64,000 bases of DNA from an uncultured Verrucomicrobiae bacterium (lineage in GTDB: Bacteria > Verrucomicrobiota > Verrucomicrobiia > Limisphaerales > Palsa-1400). Below, piece by piece: positions 27,590 to 36,693 of the stretch. Location: positions 206,118 through 270,117 of the forward strand of contig CAVPOM010000015.1 of the NCBI GenBank assembly GCA_963707025.1. Direction: 5' to 3'. The position numbers and the translations under genes were made by a program. A model generated the notes under the pieces. That model was not told the origin of the DNA. It saw only the letters and a program-made list of their open reading frames with translations, and did no database searches. Within the stretch, counting starts at the first letter, position 1. Every line of letters begins with the position of its first letter.

Positions 27590-27750
27590 GGGTAGAAGCA
27601 ATAAAGGAAAAATGCCAATTGCAAAATGATAAAATTCGGCCCGGCCCGCCCAAACCCCATCGTTCCTGTTTGGCAGTGTCCCAACTTTCGGTCGTGTACT
27701 ACCAGATTGTTGATGAATTTGCAAATTGTGGGCAAGATTCAGAAAAACCC

Positions 27751-28119
27751 ATGAAATTTAAAATTGAATTGGATGACGACTCCGCCCGCCTGCTTCTGGC
27801 GGCAGAGCCACCGCCCGGCGTCACGATCAAGGGTCCGCCACCCATCAACCCCGACGCCATAATAACAACGCGGCTGGGCGTGCCCCAGGAAACAATCCAC
27901 GCGCTGACCATTTTAGCGGTAAAGGTTGGAACGGGCGTCACGATTTCTTTAGTTTCGGGGTGGCTTCTCAAGGTGCTGAAGAATCAACCAGCCGATCAAC
28001 CAGCCCACAATAAACGCAAGATAGTTCTGAAGACAAAGGATTGGGTACTCACGGTAGAGGATGAGATTGGAAAGGCAAACCCCCATTATCCCAGCGCCAA
28101 AACAAAGCGTAAAAAGTAA
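27751..28119 (+). CDS. Hypothetical passenger protein with one hydrophobic segment
   Basis: 122-aa ORF from MKFKIELDD, with ILAVKVGTGVTISLVSGWLL. Confidence 0.55.
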   Translation: MKFKIELDDDSARLLLAAEPPPGVTIKGPPPINPDAIITTRLGVPQETIHALTILAVKVGTGVTISLVSGWLLKVLKNQPADQPAHNKRKIVLKTKDWVLTVEDEIGKANPHYPSAKTKRKK

Positions 28120-28246
28120 GGATTTGTTCATTCTTGAAGAATGGCGGGGGCGGACAGCCCAAAATCCATCCAGTGGTATAGCTGGTGATAGGACGCCGCT
28201 TGTTTACGGCTGGGATGTCCACGCCCCCTTAAAGATTTAAGGCGGA

Positions 28247-28399
28247 TTACTTCCGCACGCGCCATCGGATGGAAATCTGCACTTTCTGCTGCGGCGCGTT
28301 TTTTTCGACCTCGGCGGGGGTTTCCGAAAGAATCTGCTCAATTTGAGCGTGGGTGAGGCGCGGCCCCTGCGGGCGGCGGATTCGGGGCTTGGTTTTCAT
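28247..28399 (-). CDS. Small basic hypothetical passenger protein (50 aa)
   Basis: MKTKPRIRRPQGPRLTHAQIEQILSETPAEVEKNAPQQKVQISIRWRVRK. Confidence 0.4.
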   Translation of the reverse strand: MKTKPRIRRPQGPRLTHAQIEQILSETPAEVEKNAPQQKVQISIRWRVRK

Positions 28400-28479
28400 G
28401 TTCAATATCTTAGTGCGGGCTTCGATTGTCAGTGGGTTCATTTTTAAGATTGCCCTGATCGGGCAGCAAGAATAGCCTT

Positions 28480-29929
28480 CACAGCCATCCCACAGGAAAT
28501 TGGAAAAAAGTGTTGGCTTGACCATTTGAACCTGCCACAAGGCAGGCATGAAAAACAAAAAAATCAAACCGACACGGTCCCGGTTTAACGTTTTGCGCCA
28601 GATTTGCAATCTCATTCCTGCGCATGAAGTCTCCAAAATAGCGCGGGAGACCGGGCTCTGGATAAGTCGCGCACCTTCAGTCCGTGGAGTCACACGGTCA
28701 GTTTGCTGGACGCGCAACTCACCCATTGCATCGGACTCAACGATCTGTGCGACTCGCTGCAATTGCATTCCGGGCCGCTGTCCACTTTGCGCGGCGCCAG
28801 CGCCCCCAGCCGCAACGGCCTCTCCCACGCCAACCGGGAGCGTCCGGCCCAGATGGCCGAACAACTCTTCTGGCGGGTCCTGGAGCATTTGAAAGCACAG
28901 ACGCCCGGCTTTGCCGCGGGCCAGCGCCGTGGCCCCGCCTTCCGTTTCAAGATGCCCATCCATGTGATTGATAGCACGACCATGGAACTGGTGGCCAACT
29001 GCCTGGACTGGGCCAAGCACCGCCGGCGCAAGGCCGCCGCCAAAACCCATATGCGGTTGAATCTGCAGAATCTTTTGCCCGGTTTTGTCATTGTGGACAC
29101 TGCCGCCGAGCACGACAACCGACGGGCGCGGGAACTGTGCGCCGACTTGAAGAGCGGCGAAATCGCCTTGTTCGACAAGGGTTATGTGGACTTCGGCCAC
29201 TTGCGGGATTTGGACGGGCGCGGGGTCTTTTGGGTGACGCGGGCCAAGGAGAACATGGGCTATGAGGTGGTGCGGAAAATGCCCGCCTCCAGAGACCCGA
29301 AGATTTTGCGCGACGAAGTGATCGTCCTGAGCAACGAGAACAAACCCGCGCCGGAGTTGATGCGCCGGGTGGTGGCGCTGGTCGAGATTGATGGAGAGGA
29401 ACGGGAAATGACCTTCCTGACCAACAACCTGGAGTGGAGTCCGCGCAGCGTGGCCGACCTTTACCGCTGCCGCTGGCAGATCGAAGTCTTCTTCAAACAA
29501 ATCAAGCAGACCTTGCAGTTGGCGGATTTTCTGGGCCACAACGCCAACGCCGTGCGCTGGCAGGTGTGGACGGCGCTGTTGACCTACGTGCTGTTGCGCT
29601 ACCTCAGTCACCTCTCCAACTGGGCGCACAGCTTCACCCGGCTGTTCACGATTTTGCGGGCGGCGCTCTGGGAGAAATATGATCTGCTCAATTTGCTGGC
29701 GTGCTATGGGACAGCAGGCGGCAGCTTTCGCCACTTGGCGCGGCCCGAGCAGGCGTATTTCCCCGGCTTCCAATAAAGCTATGGGACAGCACACGCGCCC
29801 AAACAGGCGCATACCACACCCAAAAGCCAAACTCGGAAAAATCAAAATCTCATTTTACCCCGAAGACCAATTAAACCCTTGCAAATGAACAGGTCAGCAC
29901 CAGACTTTTCCCCTTATGAGACGGGTGTG
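28480..29929 (+). mobile_element. IS4-family element nested in the IS1 transposon
   Basis: 9-bp TSD AATAGCCTT (28471-28479, 29930-29938); imperfect IRs CACAGCCATCCCACAGG / CACACCCGTCTCATAAG. Confidence 0.85.
28548..29776 (+). CDS. IS4-family DDE transposase; frameshift near 28655
   Basis: VIDSTTM, LFDKGYVDF, LYRCRWQIEVFFKQIKQ (YREK motif); N-terminus in ORF 28548. Confidence 0.9.
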
Positions 29930-29955
29930 AATAGCCTTCATAAACTCCTTATTTT

Positions 29956-30276
29956 ATGACCGACAACGAAACTCGCCTCAACGAGCAATCCATTTTTGAC
30001 ATTCTGGATGATCTCCGGCGAGCCGGATTTGTTGAGAGTTTCGTCATCAAGGAAGGGAGCGTCCGTGTCGAAGAAGCCAGGATCACCTTCACCGAAAAGG
30101 GCCGACATTTGATTTCCGCATATGGAGACGCTTTCAGTTGCCTTGGGGACCACGACAAGCGGCACATAGAAACGCTTGACGAATTCCTCCGTGCGTTTGC
30201 GGCCCAGCAAATCCGGTATATTTCCGGGCAAAGGCTTATCCGGGCCGCAGATGGTGGCTATATCCTCAGCCGTTAA
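29956..30276 (+). CDS. Hypothetical passenger protein
   Basis: 106-aa ORF (ILDDLRRAGFVES...ITFTEKGRHLI, wHTH-like ending), convergent with the transposase. Confidence 0.5.
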   Translation: MTDNETRLNEQSIFDILDDLRRAGFVESFVIKEGSVRVEEARITFTEKGRHLISAYGDAFSCLGDHDKRHIETLDEFLRAFAAQQIRYISGQRLIRAADGGYILSR

Positions 30277-30369
30277 GGTAATGGTTTTAGGAATTATCCG
30301 CTGAATCCTTATTGAAATTCTCAGGTACGGAGTAAAATCGTGCGTGGCTTTTTGGTATGGCATTTGAAT

Positions 30370-31364
30370 TTAGGTTGTTGATTGTGTCGTTTGTTCGATC
30401 AATTCCTCTACCGACCAAGAGTGGTCGGTGAGTTTCGCGCCCACAGCGGGCGTACATCCCAAAGTTGAATGGACCTTGCAGAAATTATAGGCCGCCACAA
30501 ACAGGCTGTTCGCCGCCTTGTGGTTTTCCAGCTTGCGGGACCAGCCGAGGCCGAGGCGCACAAACCGCTTGTTGAAATGCCGGACGGTCAAATTGGCCCG
30601 TTCAACATGGCTGGTGCAAATTCTGTCCCGGCGTGGATTACCCGCCTTCACCCGAACCTTGACGCCGACGAAGGGGGCGGGTGAATATCGCCGGGCAGCT
30701 TCGACTTGGCCAAGCGGGGTGGCGAACTGCTTTACCATAACGGCATAATCCAGCCGCTCCAAGAGGTATTGGCGGATGATGGCCGGGTATGCCCGAAAGG
30801 CGTCGCTGGTGATTTGGATGCGCCCGACGATTCGGGAGGCCAAATCCTTTACGAAAACATCTGTATCTCGGCATCCCGTTTGCCCGTGTAATGGCTGACA
30901 ATCAGCTTCTCCCGCGCCGCGATACCCAGGAACGTGTAAAAGTCGCCGCGCTCGGTGTCATCTTCCGTTGTGCGGCTCTGGCGGATTGCGACCCGGCTCC
31001 AGAGTTCGTCAACCTGAACCGAATCGGTGGTGATATTGCGAACGAGCCGATCATGCAGGCCAGCGCAGGCGGTGCCAACTTCCGACAGGACACCCAAAAC
31101 CGTCCGGGTGTGGCAATCGGTTAATCGGCTGATGGCGCGGACTCCGCATCCCTCGGAGAACAGGCGGACAATCTGGACAATCTTCCCATGCTCGATCCTC
31201 ACGCCTTCCAACGGCTGGGATTCGGAAAATGTTTTCCCACACCGGACGCAGCGGTAACGCTGGACGATTCGGTTGCGGTTCTCAAAATGGCCGAAACGCT
31301 GGGTTTCGCCCTGACAGCAATGACAATTCAACTTGCCTTTCCGGGCAGGATGAACTACTGTCAA
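30370..31364 (-). CDS. IS1-family transposase (Zn ribbon-HTH-DDE); frameshift near 30865; true start may be TTG 31331
   Basis: CHCC...QRYRCVRCGKTF, EGCGVRAISRLT, VQVDELWS, ITSDAFRAY, TSHVERANLTVRH...RFVRLGLGWSRKLENH, YNFCKVH. Confidence 0.88.
31333..31361 (+). promoter_or_regulatory. Antisense (pOUT-like) sigma70 promoter over the transposase start
   Basis: TTGCCT (31333-31338), 17-bp spacer, TACTGT (31356-31361). Confidence 0.5.
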
Positions 31365-31564
31365 GTCTGCATCTAGCGATGTGCGACCGAACGCAGTTCA
31401 CGCTGCGCTTTGTTGCGCCCTGCCGGTGTTCAAGCACTGGCAGGGCAGTTTAAATTTTAGGATCAGGGCGGGGTGTCTCCGGCTAATGAAGCTGGGATTT
31501 ACCGTCTAAGGGAAGCCTTGCAAGCTCCCCGCCCGTTCCTGAAATTACTTCGCAGAACGGGGGT

Positions 31565-31592
31565 AGTTTACCACATCCACCTTAAGACGCAA
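31565..31592 (-). promoter_or_regulatory. Candidate transposase promoter
   Basis: Minus strand TTGCGT, 16-bp spacer, TAAACT with an extended TGn motif. Confidence 0.45.
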
Positions 31593-31652
31593 GCAAATGT
31601 TTATTGCGAATAGGGCATGTGCTTATGATGTAAAAGATTGTGCGAAATGGCC

Positions 31653-31681
31653 TTGACATCCATAAGCATGAGGCTTATCGT
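31653..31681 (+). promoter_or_regulatory. Promoter for a probably leaderless wHTH gene
   Basis: TTGACA (31653-31658), 17-bp spacer, TATCGT (31676-31681); ATG follows 6 nt later. Confidence 0.55.
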
Positions 31682-31687
31682 GCGGGT

Positions 31688-32089
31688 ATGGTTGATGATA
31701 AATTTGACATTTTAAAATCGAAATACTCGGAGCGCCTTCGCCAGGCAGAGCGCCAGGTGTCCGAATTAAAAGAGAAGCTCCGCCTTATCAAGGAACTGGA
31801 AGTTGAGGCCAACGCCCAAGCGGTGAATGGGGCCGACGCTGTGGATGGCCAATATAAAACCGCCACTCTTACCCCCGCCATTTTTGATGCCCTGTCGGTT
31901 CTGGCTAAATCCGATTGGATCACCGGCGGTGCGATAAGGAAACATCTCCTGGCGCACGGGTTCCAGCCGAAGGGAAATCATTTTTCCACTTCGGTCAACC
32001 TGACGCTAAGGCGGCTGGCGAAAAACAAGCAAATCCAGACAAAATTGGAGGAGGGAAGCCGACTTTACCAGAGCATCGAAAAGAAATGA
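31688..32089 (+). CDS. Coiled-coil plus winged-helix-like protein, putative regulator
   Basis: N-terminal heptads (LRQAERQVSELKEKLRLIKELE), then AIFDALSV...GGAIRKHLLAHGF...SVNLTLRRLAKNKQI...SRLY; divergent from the transposase. Confidence 0.6.
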   Translation: MVDDKFDILKSKYSERLRQAERQVSELKEKLRLIKELEVEANAQAVNGADAVDGQYKTATLTPAIFDALSVLAKSDWITGGAIRKHLLAHGFQPKGNHFSTSVNLTLRRLAKNKQIQTKLEEGSRLYQSIEKK

Positions 32090-32172
32090 TTGCAGAAAAG
32101 GGGCGCGGAGGATAGCGTGGCACATTCACTTGCATCATTAGCAAGAGACAACGCGCCCCTTTTCTGCAATCA
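32079..32172 (-). ncRNA. Candidate small structured RNA (~90 nt)
   Basis: Perfect 21-bp stem (32087-32107 / 32152-32172) around a 44-nt interior. Minus-strand promoter TTGACT-17-CATACT (32207-32179) points at the stem start, and a TTTCTTTT tail follows. Confidence 0.55.
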
Positions 32173-32325
32173 CGAGACAGTATGGCTTTTTGCAATGCGA
32201 AAGTCAAACAGAGTTTTAAACGAAGGTCCACACCGTGGGGCGGGACCGCCTTCGGGGAAAAAGGCAGGGTTTTTTGGAGGATTTTTCATTTGATTTTAAA
32301 AGTGAAAAATCTTTAAATCACGCCT

Positions 32326-32790
32326 ATGGAACCGTTGAAGCCTTCCGACCCTGATTATCTTCCGCCCACCAAGGGCAAGACACCGGAAGAAATGGCGGAC
32401 TGGATGGCCAAGAATATGCCGGGTAAGCCGGAATATCTGACATGCCTTTGCAGGGCGTGCTCTCAAAAATTGGAATTTCCCGTCGAATTGTTTTTCCAGA
32501 ATTTTAAATGCCCGACGTGTGGAGAAGTGACGCGACTTTTCAATCGAGAATATGGCGATCTCGTCACGACGGAAATGGGGAGGCGGGTTGAAGCATATTC
32601 ACGCAGGGTTGGATGTCCAAATTGCGGCTGCTTGGATTATGATCTCTATGAACCAGCAAGGCCGGTCGTTTTTGGTTCGATGACTTTCACGGGCCAGCTT
32701 CTCGCCGGAATTTCAAACAGCATGGCAGATGCCATGTTCAAGCCGGAAAAGGTGTGCTGTAAATGTGGCCAGCACAGGCCAGATTTTTAA
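32326..32790 (+). CDS. Multi-CxxC zinc-ribbon passenger protein
   Basis: CRAC, CPTC, CPNC, CCKC pairs; ends 2 bp before the right IR. Confidence 0.65.
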   Translation: MEPLKPSDPDYLPPTKGKTPEEMADWMAKNMPGKPEYLTCLCRACSQKLEFPVELFFQNFKCPTCGEVTRLFNREYGDLVTTEMGRRVEAYSRRVGCPNCGCLDYDLYEPARPVVFGSMTFTGQLLAGISNSMADAMFKPEKVCCKCGQHRPDF

Positions 32791-32888
32791 GCATTTATCA
32801 ACAATCTGGTAGTACACGACCCAACTTTCCACGGCTCCGCTTTTCCTCTTGCCTCTTGGCGCCGTCGGCGCAACATCCGCCCATCACT

Positions 32889-34438
32889 ATGAAAATACTA
32901 TGCCTCCTTCTGGTTGTGACCGTGCCGGCTTTCGCCCAGGGCCGCCGCGGGCGCGGCGCGCAAATTGATGCCACCGTCCCGTCCCAGCGCTCCGGAAGCG
33001 TTGACACCAATACTCCCGTCTCGGAGAAGATTGATGAAACGCCGGTCATCACGCATCACACCAATACGGTCGGCGGCAGGACGCTGGTCTATACCGCCAC
33101 GGCGGCGGAGATGCCGATTTTCAACGCGGTCGGCGAAGTGGAAGCGCACATGTTCTATGTCGCCTACACGCTGGATGAGGCCAGCAATAATCCGGCCCGG
33201 CGGCCGGTGTCCTTTTCCTTTAACGGCGGGCCGGGCTCGGCTTCGGTCTGGGTCCACATGGGTGCCTTTGGCCCAGGCGGGTGAACCTGACGGACAGCGG
33301 CGACATGCCGCCGCCGCCCTACCATTTGGTGGACAACGAAGACACGCTGCTGGATCAAACGGACCTGGTGTTCATTGACGCGGTGGGCACGGGTTTCAGC
33401 CGCGCCAAATCGCCGGAACTGGCGCGCAAATATGAGGGGGTGCAGGGCGATTTGACGGCCTTCGGGGAATTTATCCGCCTGTATTTGACACGCAATTCGC
33501 GCTGGCTCTCGCCCCTGTTCATCGTGGGGGAAAGCTACGGGACCTTCCGGGCGGCGGGCCTGGCCGGAACCCTGGTGGAACAGGGGATCGCGCTCAACGG
33601 CGTGGTTTTGGTTTCGACCATTTTATATTACGAGACCGCGCGCGCCAGCCTGGCCAACGGGCTGCCTTATGCCTTGAACATCCCAACCTACGCCGCCGAC
33701 GCCTGGTATCATAAGAAGCTGGCCCCGGACCTGCAACGGCTGGAGGTGCCGGTCTTGACCAAGGAAGTCGAGGGCTGGGCCATGACCGCCTATCTCCAGG
33801 CGCTGAACAAGGGGGACCAATTGCCCGACGGCGAACGCAAGGAGGTGGTGGCCCGGCTGGCGAGATATACCGGGTTGAGCACCAATTACGTGGACCAAAG
33901 CAACCTGCGCTTCGGCGTCGGCCAGTTCACCCGCGAATTGTTGCGCGACGAAAAATTGACCATTGGCCGCTACGACGGGCGGCTGACCGGGCCGTCGCCG
34001 TTGAACATGGGGGAAACGTCGGATTTCGATCCTTCCGGCTCACTGCCCCTGCCGCCCTTCCGGGCGACGTTCATGGATTACGTGCGCGGCACCTTGGAAT
34101 TCAAGACGGACATGACCTATTATATCAGCGGCGGCACGGTGGGATGGGATTGGGGCGTGGTCAACGGCTATGTTGAAACCGGCAGCCTCCTGCGCAGCGC
34201 CTTTCAGAAAAATCCGCATCTGAAAGTGCTGGTGTGCGCCGGCTATTTCGATTTGGCCTGCCCCTACTTCGACGCCGAATATGCGCTCAACCACCTGGGC
34301 ATTCACCCCGAGACGCAGAAGAACATCTCTTGGGCCTTCTACGAAGCTGGCCACATGATGTACATTGACCGCAAATCGCACGCCAAGCTCAGGCACGACA
34401 TCGCCGCGTTCATGCAGCAGAACGTCCCGGCGCAGTGA
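32889..34438 (+). CDS. S10 serine carboxypeptidase; frameshift near 33272
   Basis: Signal peptide; FSFNGGPGSAS, LVFIDAVGTGFS, VGESYGT, GYFDLACP, YEAGHMMY. Confidence 0.9.
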
Positions 34439-34499
34439 GGACCGAGGACGAACGAGCCAAGAAAGCTTGCAAGAATTGGCCGAAGCATTACGTTGCCGG

Positions 34500-35156
34500 G
34501 TGTGCCGGGTACTTTTAACGGTTCAGTTTCTCCGCGACGAAGCAATTGCCTTTGCCAGAGTGGAGTCAAAATTCGCCGAGCCGTCTCTGTTTGGGGTTAC
34601 GGATGGAAAAGCTGTCGGGACTTATCTTGAGCACAAGTTTCAAGCGTACCTACAAAGCAAATATCAATATGCCAAGGGAAGTTCGGCCAGGGGAATTGAT
34701 TTCCCGGAATTGGATGTTGACATAAAAGTCACCAGCATTCGCCAGCCACAGTCCTCCTGCCCGTTCAAAAGCGCCCGCCAAAAGATCTACGGTCTTGGCT
34801 ACTCACTGCTTGTTTTCGTCTATGACAAGCACGATGATCCGCAGACTCAGACGGGCCGCCTGGAATTGCAGCACACGATTTTTGTCGAAAAAGAACGCAC
34901 GGCCGATTATCAGATCACCGTTGCCTTGCGGAACATGATTGAGAACGGCGCGAATCGTGATGACATTCTCGCCTGTTTCGAAGAACGTCTTTTGCCGGTT
35001 GACAATGTTGAAGCGGAAGCGTTGGCCGAGGAGGTTCTACGGAATATGCCGCCGATCGGCTATTTGACGATCTCGAACGCCCTCCAATGGCGGCTTCAGT
35101 ATTCCAGGGTGATTGAACAAGCCGGAAAAGTGGAAGGAGTTTTGCGGCTGGAATGA
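34500..35156 (+). CDS. Putative type II restriction endonuclease (start uncertain)
   Basis: PD-(D/E)xK-like GIDFPELDVDIKVTS; GVTDGKAVGTYLEH; stop overlaps the MTase start. Confidence 0.7.
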   Translation: MCRVLLTVQFLRDEAIAFARVESKFAEPSLFGVTDGKAVGTYLEHKFQAYLQSKYQYAKGSSARGIDFPELDVDIKVTSIRQPQSSCPFKSARQKIYGLGYSLLVFVYDKHDDPQTQTGRLELQHTIFVEKERTADYQITVALRNMIENGANRDDILACFEERLLPVDNVEAEALAEEVLRNMPPIGYLTISNALQWRLQYSRVIEQAGKVEGVLRLE

Positions 35157-36693
35157 GATCGAATGCGAAAGTTGAGTTTGGGGATTTTCAGACCCCGCAG
35201 GCGCTGGCCAACCAAGTTTGCGCGCTGTTGGCGCGACGCCAAATTGTTCCGGACTTCGTTCTCGAACCAACTTGCGGAGTTGGCTCTTTTCTTGTGGCGG
35301 CCGCCCACTCGTTTTCCCGCGCGCAATTGTTCGGCTGGGACATCAATGGCGATTATGTGGAAAAAACGCGCGCCGCTCTCCGCCAGGCAGGCGCGGCTGG
35401 GCGCTCTACGGTTGCGCGGCAGGATTTTTTCAAACACAACTGGGAACGGGAACTGGCCGGTTTTAAGGGCGAACTTCTCATTCTCGGCAATCTTCCTTGG
35501 GTCACAAATGCCGCGGTTTCCAGTCTCAACGGGGGCAATGTGCCTGTCAAGCGCAATTTTCAAGGATTTCGCGGCCTGGAGGCTCGCACCGGCAAATCCA
35601 ATTTCGATATTTCGGAATGGATGCTGATTGAGCTGATAAAATCCCTGCGTGGAAGGCCGGCGACCATCGCAGTACTTTGCAAGACGGCCATCGCCCGAAA
35701 ATTGCTTCGCTTCGCATGGCAGAATGACGGACGGATCACGGCGGCATCGCTTTATCTCATTGACGCCAAAAAGCATTTTGAAGCAGCAGTGGATGCTTGC
35801 TTGCTTTTGGCGCGAACCGGCTCGGCAGGTCCGACGGAAGCGGCGGTTTTTGACGATCTGCAGGCCCAAACGCCAGCAAAGGTTTTGGGCTTGGCCGGCC
35901 AGGATCTTGTCTCCAATGTCCGGGATTACGAAAAGCTCAGGCATTTGGAGGGACTTTGCCCATATCAATGGCGGTCCGGTGTCAAACATGATTGCTCCTC
36001 GGTGATGGAACTCTGGCTCGAGGGGGAAACGTGCTGCGCAACAAACTCGATGAGAAAGTGGAACTCGAACCGGACTTTTTGTTTCCGCTCCTAAAATGCT
36101 CCGACCTGGCAAATGGCAGAACCGAGCCGGAGCGTTTTGTTTTGGTGACGCAAACGCGGGTTGGCGAAGATACTTCCGGGATTTCCACCAAAGCTCCTCT
36201 GACCTGGAATTATCTGGATTCACACAGAAGACTTTTCGAGGCGCGAAAGAGTTCCATCTACGCCAGCCGGATTCCGTTCGCGCTTTTTGGCATCGGCGAT
36301 TATTCATTTGCGCCGTGGAAGGTGGCGATTTCGGGATTCCATAAGACACCGCGCTTTGTCCGGGTGGCGCCTTGGCAAGACAAGCCGGTTTTTTTTGATG
36401 ATGCGTGTTATTTTCTGCCGTTTCAGAACCTGGAAGAAACCGAAGCCGTCGCCGATATTCTAAATTCCGAGCCATGTCTGCGTTTTATTGCGTCGCTTTT
36501 GTTTGAAGATTCCAAGCGCCCGATTACGGTTGAACTGCTGCAACGGCTCAACCTTTACGCAATCGCAGAAGAAGCGGGTTTGGCCGATAGATGGGCATCC
36601 GCTCGCAATCAGCGGAATTGTTATCCTTGTGAGAGCGAGTCCCGGCAAGCTGAATTCCTGATGGAACGACCAGCGTCCTCACGGCAAAAATGA
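35153..36693 (+). CDS. Amino (N6-A/N4-C) DNA methyltransferase; frameshift near 36022
   Basis: FGDFQTP, VLEPTCGVGSF (motif I), ILGNLPW (motif IV variant); target-recognition part in ORF 35992-36693. Confidence 0.8.

Follow-up and report, generated by a model that had tools for sequence, protein, structure and literature searches.

Here we describe a structured RNA module carried by an IS1-family cargo transposon, found in a 64,000-nucleotide stretch of DNA (the window) from an uncultured Verrucomicrobiae bacterium, contig CAVPOM010000015.1. The transposon spans 27690-32821 (5,132 bp) and contains two long stems, H1 at 31453-31546 and H2 at 32087-32172, which are inverted copies of one module of about 85 nt that we call H. 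Our favoured reading, to which we assign a probability of roughly 0.4, is that the strand of H whose loop reads CAU is a tRNA-Met-like RNA lacking the T arm, made behind a cargo gene and kept silent by a transcript of the opposite strand; for H2, this silencer would be the small RNA that an earlier note on this DNA had proposed.

We collected 21 distinct copies of H, including the two in the window, all from a single Verrucomicrobiota order, in three families of which model R1 found H. Relatives of the transposase yielded H1-like stems in six loci (L004, L006, L007, L008, L011 and L028), while pattern scans added seven copies, model R1 five, and one lay behind a match to ABC, the second structured RNA of this subfamily. 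In the pattern scans, where duplicate loci were counted a single time, true copies made up 0 of 4 viral, 7 of 93 metagenomic and 5 of 16 genomic hits, and a second pattern gave none among viral sequences. The weak model hits L155, L156, L159, L164, L165 and L203 were discarded as H on context. No credible copy appeared in 150 genomes sampled from the phylum outside this order, and the combination of ABC and H1 was not found in plasmid and phage collections. H1 and H2 are the only copies in this genome, so the idea of an abundant repeat or miniature inverted-repeat transposable element was rejected. An alignment of 15 sequences had 84.5% of its cells paired and two-sided changes in 13 of 24 pairs, matched by 0 of 500 shuffles, figures that the relatedness of the sequences inflates. 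The hairpin is indeed conserved in relatives with covariation. On the window, Rfam gave nothing at gathering score, and loose E-values returned only chance matches of the microRNA-like or internal ribosome entry site kind.

A cargo gene that reads towards H has its stop codon 49-155 nt from the H loop in 15 of 20 copies, which assigns the module to the 3' end of the cargo. The cargo proteins differ from copy to copy and match helix-turn-helix (HTH) families at most; one locus (L060) carries H and cargo with no transposase match. In the window, the cargo gene (31688-32089, + strand) encodes 133 amino acids with a coiled coil and a probable winged HTH, and the H2 stem begins with the three bases of its stop codon. 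Its protein matched no Pfam or NCBIfam family, its Atlas neighbours are hypothetical proteins with HTH leads only, and no viral relative was found. The cargo promoter, TTGACA-17-TATCGT (31653-31681, +), ends 6 nt ahead of the ATG, predicting a leaderless mRNA, and a short palindrome overlaps it. Such an upstream cargo gene is absent for H1, as it is in L028 and L102, and the window's cargo gene with H2 faces the opposite way; the window thus holds two inverted copies. An inverted cassette of cargo and H would put two copies face to face and so account for the complementarity between H2 and the transposase leader.

That complementarity is central to the earlier note, and the features it described are all present. 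The H2 arms (32087-32107 and 32152-32172) form a perfect, fully complementary stem of 21 bp, whose folding z scores are -7.5 on the minus and -8.3 on the plus strand (equally stable shuffles, 0 of 200), and on the minus strand the stem is followed by the U-rich tail UUUCUUUU. The promoter facing it, TTGACT-17-CATACT (32207-32179, minus strand), was recovered by a promoter scanner, and transcription from it is predicted to begin with the stem's first base; a site as good arose at this position in 0.7% of 1000 shuffles. Judged from the sequence, a minus-strand small RNA from this promoter is plausible. The common motif TGTCTC-N4-TAATGA occurs at 31474 (+) and 32150 (-), within 19-nt segments that are identical at 16 of 19 positions, so that the small RNA can pair with the leader at 17 of 19, one of these being G-U. 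Two points need correction. The second long stem, H1, exists, but its plus strand folds better (z -3.3) than the direction of the transposase mRNA (z -1.8), and the ATGTGC placed near the start region is present at 31379-31384, but about 50 nt upstream of the likely TTG start rather than at it. The note's broader expectation, that the element is controlled at the RNA level, we rate as likely.

The conclusion drawn from these features, namely that H2 produces a C4-like RNA pairing in trans with the H1 site to control transposase expression, we consider very improbable. The supposed leader site is the second, inverted copy of the same module. If H2 had evolved for H1 it would fit H1 best, but among 19 non-cognate copies there are 6 whose antisense it matches equally well or better (18 of 19 positions for L008, 17 of 19 for five others), which shows the lack of a specific fit. 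Cofolding H2 with the leader brought a gain of 0.0 kcal/mol, against -90 and -224 for the RNAs from the outward promoter. Nor did the single-stranded parts of 20 copies have a recurring complement within 1.5 kb, as would be expected of separate target sites that co-vary with the loops, and the Rfam C4 model (RF01695), which the note had suggested trying, found nothing in the window region or in 12 related loci, whether at gathering score or at E<=10/5. No other Rfam family matched either. Two copies of H in one locus were seen in the window only, among 54 sources scanned, and many sibling elements, including a copy on contig C2 of the same genome, share this transposase leader but lack H. Moreover, the site lies 140-160 nt from the start codon, and a perfectly complementary cis RNA from P_out, an outward promoter treated below, would out-compete H2. 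On the other side stand the 17 of 19 complementary positions, two 7-nt loops that are predicted to be unpaired and able to kiss at 6 of 7, and a three-helix shape of about 77 nt with a closing stem that resembles C4 as portrayed in the available part of PMC5320573, a likeness of shape only. A loop-loop contact of H2 with the antisense of H1 over 6 of 7 nt is possible as cross-talk.

Known C4 RNAs show where the likeness ends. C4 of phages P1 and P7 and the C4-like Group 1 RNAs of Acinetobacter have variable, target-specifying loops and separate target sites, according to the portion of PMC5320573 consulted. Like H, they measure about 80-90 nt and combine a closing stem that starts with GG and two inner hairpins (excerpts of PMC5320573 and PMC2864571). 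C4 RNAs are probably cut from a longer transcript, and the Acinetobacter RNAs have antisense partners (PMC5320573, same portion), both of which may also be true of H. In contrast, the C4 model does not recognise H, which lacks separate a/b target sites and has an invariant loop. The Soil-1 and Solibacter-1 RNAs, as given in the excerpts of PMC2864571, are unlike both H and ABC.

H has a tRNA-like geometry. Read on the cargo strand, all 21 copies parse into a stem of 7-8 bp that mostly opens with GGG, a variable region of 13-39 nt, an arm of 5 bp, about 6 nt and the closing strand. The arm carries a 7-nt loop, Y-U-C-A-U-W-A, in which positions 3-5 are CAU (AUG on the other strand) in 21 of 21 copies, as they are in the 7 of 7 that were found without the H pattern or model. 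Loop flanks follow suit, with U33 in 16, a pyrimidine at 32 in 18 and A38 in 18 of the 21, and mostly agree at Y32, U33 and A38 with the CUCAUAA loop of the host tRNA-Met. H thus has the acceptor-like stem of 7 bp, the 5-bp arm with 7-nt loop and the Y32 U33 of a tRNA. For H2 on the + (cargo) strand, the parts are an acceptor at 32101-32107/32152-32158, a D-like arm at 32110-32127, the 5-bp arm at 32129-32145 with CAU at 32136-32138, and a linker of 6 nt in place of a T arm; this cloverleaf, with a canonical D arm of four pairs, folds at -18.3 kcal/mol, 1.2 kcal/mol above the minimum of -19.5. In H1, with a core stem at 31466-31473/31527-31534 and the arm at 31479-31495, the loop reads AUG on the + and CAU on the - strand. 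The arm itself speaks for the CAU strand, on which all five pairs form in 14 of 21 copies, compared with 7 of 21 on the other, and which its G-U pairs favour by 12 cells to 1. T-arm-less tRNAs are familiar from nematode mitochondria.

Several observations weigh against a tRNA-Met-like RNA on the CAU strand. A canonical T loop is absent, no CCA follows the stem on this strand, and position 37 is U in 11 of 21 copies and a purine in 9, unlike tRNAs. Neither the Rfam tRNA model (RF00005) nor ARAGORN in mitochondrial mode (0 of 21 copies on either strand) recognised H. A profile of H searched against 78 host tRNA calls scored at best 5.4 bits, for tRNA-Met on the CAU strand, which 1 of 60 shuffled sets equalled, and pairwise tests singled out no tRNA. 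Overall, the sequence similarity of H to tRNAs is weak and is seen on both strands. In the outer helix, G-U pairs favour the AUG strand by 20 cells to 6, and in the core they are divided 3:3. These split counts would fit two RNAs, each under selection, without telling which one acts. Finally, the window's transposase gene is broken, and the element may be decaying.

Some of the same evidence can be turned into an alternative, in which the AUG strand, transcribed by read-through from P_out or from a promoter of its own, would be the working RNA, a four-armed tRNA-shaped molecule showing its AUG loop to a host partner such as the anticodon of the initiator tRNA, the ribosome or a protein, with its antisense relation to the cargo transcript being incidental. 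We rank this second, as possible, if on balance doubtful. Besides the outer-helix pairs, it draws on predicted promoters that point along the AUG strand and would start at the first outer-helix base in H2 and L060, on a third hairpin with loop CU-NNN-AA that abuts the closing stem as a T arm would, and on tRNA genes lying on the outward strand of some elements (L008, L163 and L236). The AUG strand also shows collinear similarity to tRNA-Gly(UCC), at a mean z of 1.9 versus 0.8 for the next other tRNA, but a profile search did not recover this likeness. The arm that bears the AUG is better paired on the other strand, and most H1-type copies have no terminator-like U run behind them. Open reading frames (ORFs) from the loop AUG are not conserved either; a conserved leader peptide was considered and rejected, as the frames differ (4-116 codons, with five of 7 codons).

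Alternatively, H might mainly serve in cis for processing or termination where the cargo mRNA ends, as a hairpin of RNase III or RNase P type that lowers read-through into the transposase, with the loop kept for a protein and H2 serving as terminator of the opposing transcript. Its place directly behind stop codons, its long closing helices and the U run after H2 on the minus strand would suit such a role, as would other long multi-branch hairpins at neighbouring positions (L006, L007, L008, L011, L027, L028, L053, L098 and L102). However, an invariant triplet within a fixed arm of 5 bp and 7 nt, together with conserved single-stranded linkers in three families, exceeds what a terminator needs, and the cargo strand has no U run; we think this explanation unlikely.

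If the CAU strand is the working one, its partner would most probably be found in trans. A sense/antisense pair in cis compensates for any change by itself, and the invariance of the triplet would thus argue for a trans partner. In 20 loci, neither the loop nor the linkers showed a pattern of pairing with the start region of the cargo or any fixed cis site, apart from one 11-nt match to hairpin A, seen in L008 only. A search of the host genome for trans targets of the linkers gave only scattered matches with 1-2 mismatches. A bridge-RNA-like match to the element ends was also rejected, the inverted repeat (IR) sequence being unlike the H loops as judged by eye.

Another view of H comes from sister IS1 elements, in which degenerate tRNA-like genes lie 130-450 nt upstream of the transposase. 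Such a gene, on the transposase strand, is present in 13 of 69 distinct transposase leaders (L012, L015, L031, L210, L212, L219-L221, L235, L247, L248, L258 and L259). In seven of the 13, a promoter pattern on the antisense strand lies 10-20 nt beyond the 3' end, where 0.55 would be expected and 2 of 77 host tRNAs have one. Against our favoured reading, the pattern was composed once five of the 13 cases had been seen; it matched four of the eight unseen ones. H2 and L060 have an equal antisense-promoter geometry, at 19 and about 13 nt, and beyond the tRNA-like gene about 10 of the 13 loci show, by eye, an opposite-strand hairpin with a U run. In H-less relatives of the cargo (L208, L209 and L210) a tRNA-like gene stands behind the cargo, on the cargo strand. 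A model built from the sister tRNA-like genes placed 13 of its 32 weak hits on copies of H, including the five best; against the CAU strand, eight of these fell on the AUG strand and five on the CAU strand, the best (15.7 bits, E 0.036) being on the AUG strand, which also supports the alternative given above. Several of the degenerate genes seem to lack a D arm. Odd combinations of tRNA body and anticodon were also noticed beside cargo, at L008 2983-3066, L163 881-956 and L208 977-1061, with a long variable arm and CUG or UGG loops, or an ACU anticodon.

Taken together, we propose that H is a tRNA-shaped module of this IS1 subfamily with its own antisense transcript over each copy. It would be transcribed behind the small leaderless HTH cargo gene, in the slot that sister elements fill with a degenerate tRNA gene, would be processed, and may be of tRNA ancestry. 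It cannot decode, and would most likely act in trans through the CAU loop. Candidate partners are start codons, the initiation machinery or enzymes that recognise tRNA-Met. H1 may be kept off by read-through from P_out, and H2 by the RNA from the 32207-32179 promoter. It is tempting to go further and see here an addiction or defence module made of RNA only, in which a tRNA-derived effector behind an autorepressed HTH gene is silenced by a dedicated antisense RNA; upon loss of the element or of repression, the freed mimic would jam translation initiation or act as decoy for tRNA-Met-cleaving enzymes. The effector would be a degenerate off-code tRNA in sister elements and a minimal, T-arm-less initiator-tRNA mimic in those with H. 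We hold this extension to be decidedly unlikely as a whole.

Partial parallels are known. Phages carry tRNAs that act against anticodon nucleases (PMC10264068, in the part available). H resembles the tRNAs of mobile elements in its tRNA-like geometry and in the degenerate tRNA genes of its IS1 sisters, but it differs in having no canonical T loop or CCA, in being missed by tRNA finders and in the antisense promoter opposite it. Type VIII toxin-antitoxin systems, exemplified by CreTA and SdsR, pair an RNA toxin with an RNA antitoxin, as the consulted portion of PMC11951105 reports. The likeness is one of layout, in that a mobile element would carry a pair of small RNAs that converge, of which one bears a start-codon or anticodon motif; H has no CRISPR link, and the comparison is a pure analogy.

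For control of the transposase itself, an RNA other than H2 is the better candidate on sequence grounds. P_out is an outward promoter of sigma70 type, TTGCCT-17-TACTGT (31333-31361, +), whose -35 box overlaps the ribosome-binding site of the transposase; the pattern recurs at this position in 19 of the 41 loci examined, every one of them belonging to the 25 closer loci. From it would be made ABC, an outward RNA of about 80 nt running antisense to the leader of the transposase (31368-31452, +, by model R2) and consists of a 5' hairpin, a stem with internal loop and the terminator-like hairpin C (31417-31446). In an alignment fitted to the model, with two partial antisense rows included, 92.7% of cells were paired and two-sided changes occurred in 18 of 25 pairs (0 of 500 shuffles). 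G-U/A-U exchanges fix the strand, and several copies have cUUCGg or GNRA-type loops. We found ABC in 35 loci, some carrying H and others lacking it, and with P_out it appears as the constant part of the subfamily's leader. ABC or hairpin C was also noticed in the absence of a transposase, behind small HTH genes (L178, L190, L192, L193, L197 and L199-L201), and in L245 ABC is followed by the terminator hairpin of the sister subfamily.

The closest known parallels are RNA-OUT of IS10 and art200 of IS200, cis-encoded antisense RNAs of insertion sequences that are treated in the consulted part of PMC4513863. As there, a promoter near the transposase start points outward, and a short structured RNA is antisense to the leader; ABC shares both the outward promoter and the full complementarity to the leader. 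RNA-OUT blocks ribosome binding (same part of PMC4513863), whereas ABC, with its start predicted at about 31368, some 25 nt upstream of the Shine-Dalgarno (SD) sequence at 31336-31342, would leave that sequence uncovered. No tRNA-shaped module is described for IS10 or IS200 in that part of PMC4513863, and ABC has no Rfam match. A TTT directly follows hairpin C in 2 of 17 leaders with H, compared with 11 of 17 without it. Against this contrast, the automatic parse behind it got several stems wrong and left one locus unparsed, and the elements are related; on a tree of 20 transposases and an outgroup (the window's broken gene excluded), the contrast corresponds to a minimum of four changes. The U tail being mostly missing in leaders with H, transcription from P_out may read through into H1, which is the step our favoured reading uses for silencing that copy.

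The significance of these RNAs depends on which of them acts. ABC and H are two conserved structured RNA families that match nothing in Rfam, and both reside on one transposon subfamily. The sense/antisense layout at H repeats that at the odd tRNA genes of sister elements, so that the puzzle of defective tRNAs in insertion sequences becomes a testable question; here regulation seems to serve to keep the tRNA-like RNA off. Should H prove to mimic an initiator tRNA in minimal form, it would represent a new kind of RNA effector. Should ABC alone matter, antisense control would extend to IS1-type transposases by a mechanism that spares the ribosome-binding site. In a literature search that most subscription papers lay outside, we found no description of ABC or H RNAs and none of IS1 elements whose tRNA-like genes have antisense promoters.

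The transposon that carries both stems is bounded by perfect terminal IRs of 25 bp beginning with GG (27690-27714, +, and 32797-32821, -), flanked by an 8-bp target duplication, CAACTTTC, at 27682-27689 and 32822-32829. Its transposase (30370-31331, -) is probably of the single-ORF IS1 type and likely starts at the TTG at 31331-31329, behind an SD-like GGAAAGG (31342-31336). The best family is NF033558 (E 1.4e-13, yet below cut-off, the gene halves having been scanned separately), with a weak PF03400 match. The gene carries a frameshift near 30860, with 2 nt fewer there than in the contig C2 copy; in close relatives the frame is open throughout, at 315-375 codons. A weak candidate inward promoter for the leader, an extended -10 TG-G-TAAACT at 31565-31573 (-), was read by pattern and fails the consensus rule of the scanner. 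Passenger genes sit on both sides of the internal transposase: an ORF with no assigned function (27619-28119, +, given from the first TTG, the true start probably being further on), a small ORF with a weak PadR-like HTH match (29956-30276, +, E 0.042) and, beyond H2, a Zn-ribbon gene (32326-32790, +) whose promoter region is common to the contig C2 copy. An unrelated DDE_Tnp_1 (IS4-type) transposase gene (28703-29776, +; PF01609, E 6e-27) is probably a nested insertion.

Passenger-carrying insertion sequences are known as tIS, and, within the part of PMC7986276 consulted, those of the IS1 family share with our element GG-starting IRs, an 8-bp duplication, passenger genes and, probably, a transposase with Zn-finger, HTH and DDE domains. 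It differs from them in that cargo flanks an internal transposase, in the array of structured RNA modules in the leader and in being a frameshifted copy. The sibling on contig C2 (89923-95217) is complete and flanked by an 8-bp duplication of its own; it has ABC, lacks H, and carries other cargo and an IS3-like insertion. Two relatives with H, L146 (3165 bp) and L130 (2860 bp), are likewise complete, each with an 8-bp duplication. Other types of long multi-branch hairpin were observed between H and cargo or at the cargo end in L006, L007, L008, L011, L027, L028, L053, L098, L102 and L202, which gives the leader the look of an array of RNA modules that can be swapped.

By eye, leaderless cargo genes prevail in these elements, with the -10 box 6-9 nt ahead of the start codon, and a palindrome often lies over the cargo promoter; leaderless cases include the window (31653-31690), L004, L007, L008, L074, L102, L139, L143 and others. 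This genome also has three copies of a repeat of about 50 nt (C6:428398, C9:299175 and C15:454), with a perfect TTGACA and, 7 nt behind a weak -10, an ATG or GTG start; over 14-15 nt the complement of this repeat is similar to the H core, probably a coincidence. Directly to the right of the element, at 32763-34438, lies what we take to be a peptidase S10-like gene, apparently split over two frames near 33280, and just outside the element, at 34365-36693, are ORFs that resemble those of a restriction endonuclease and of a methyltransferase divided between two frames.
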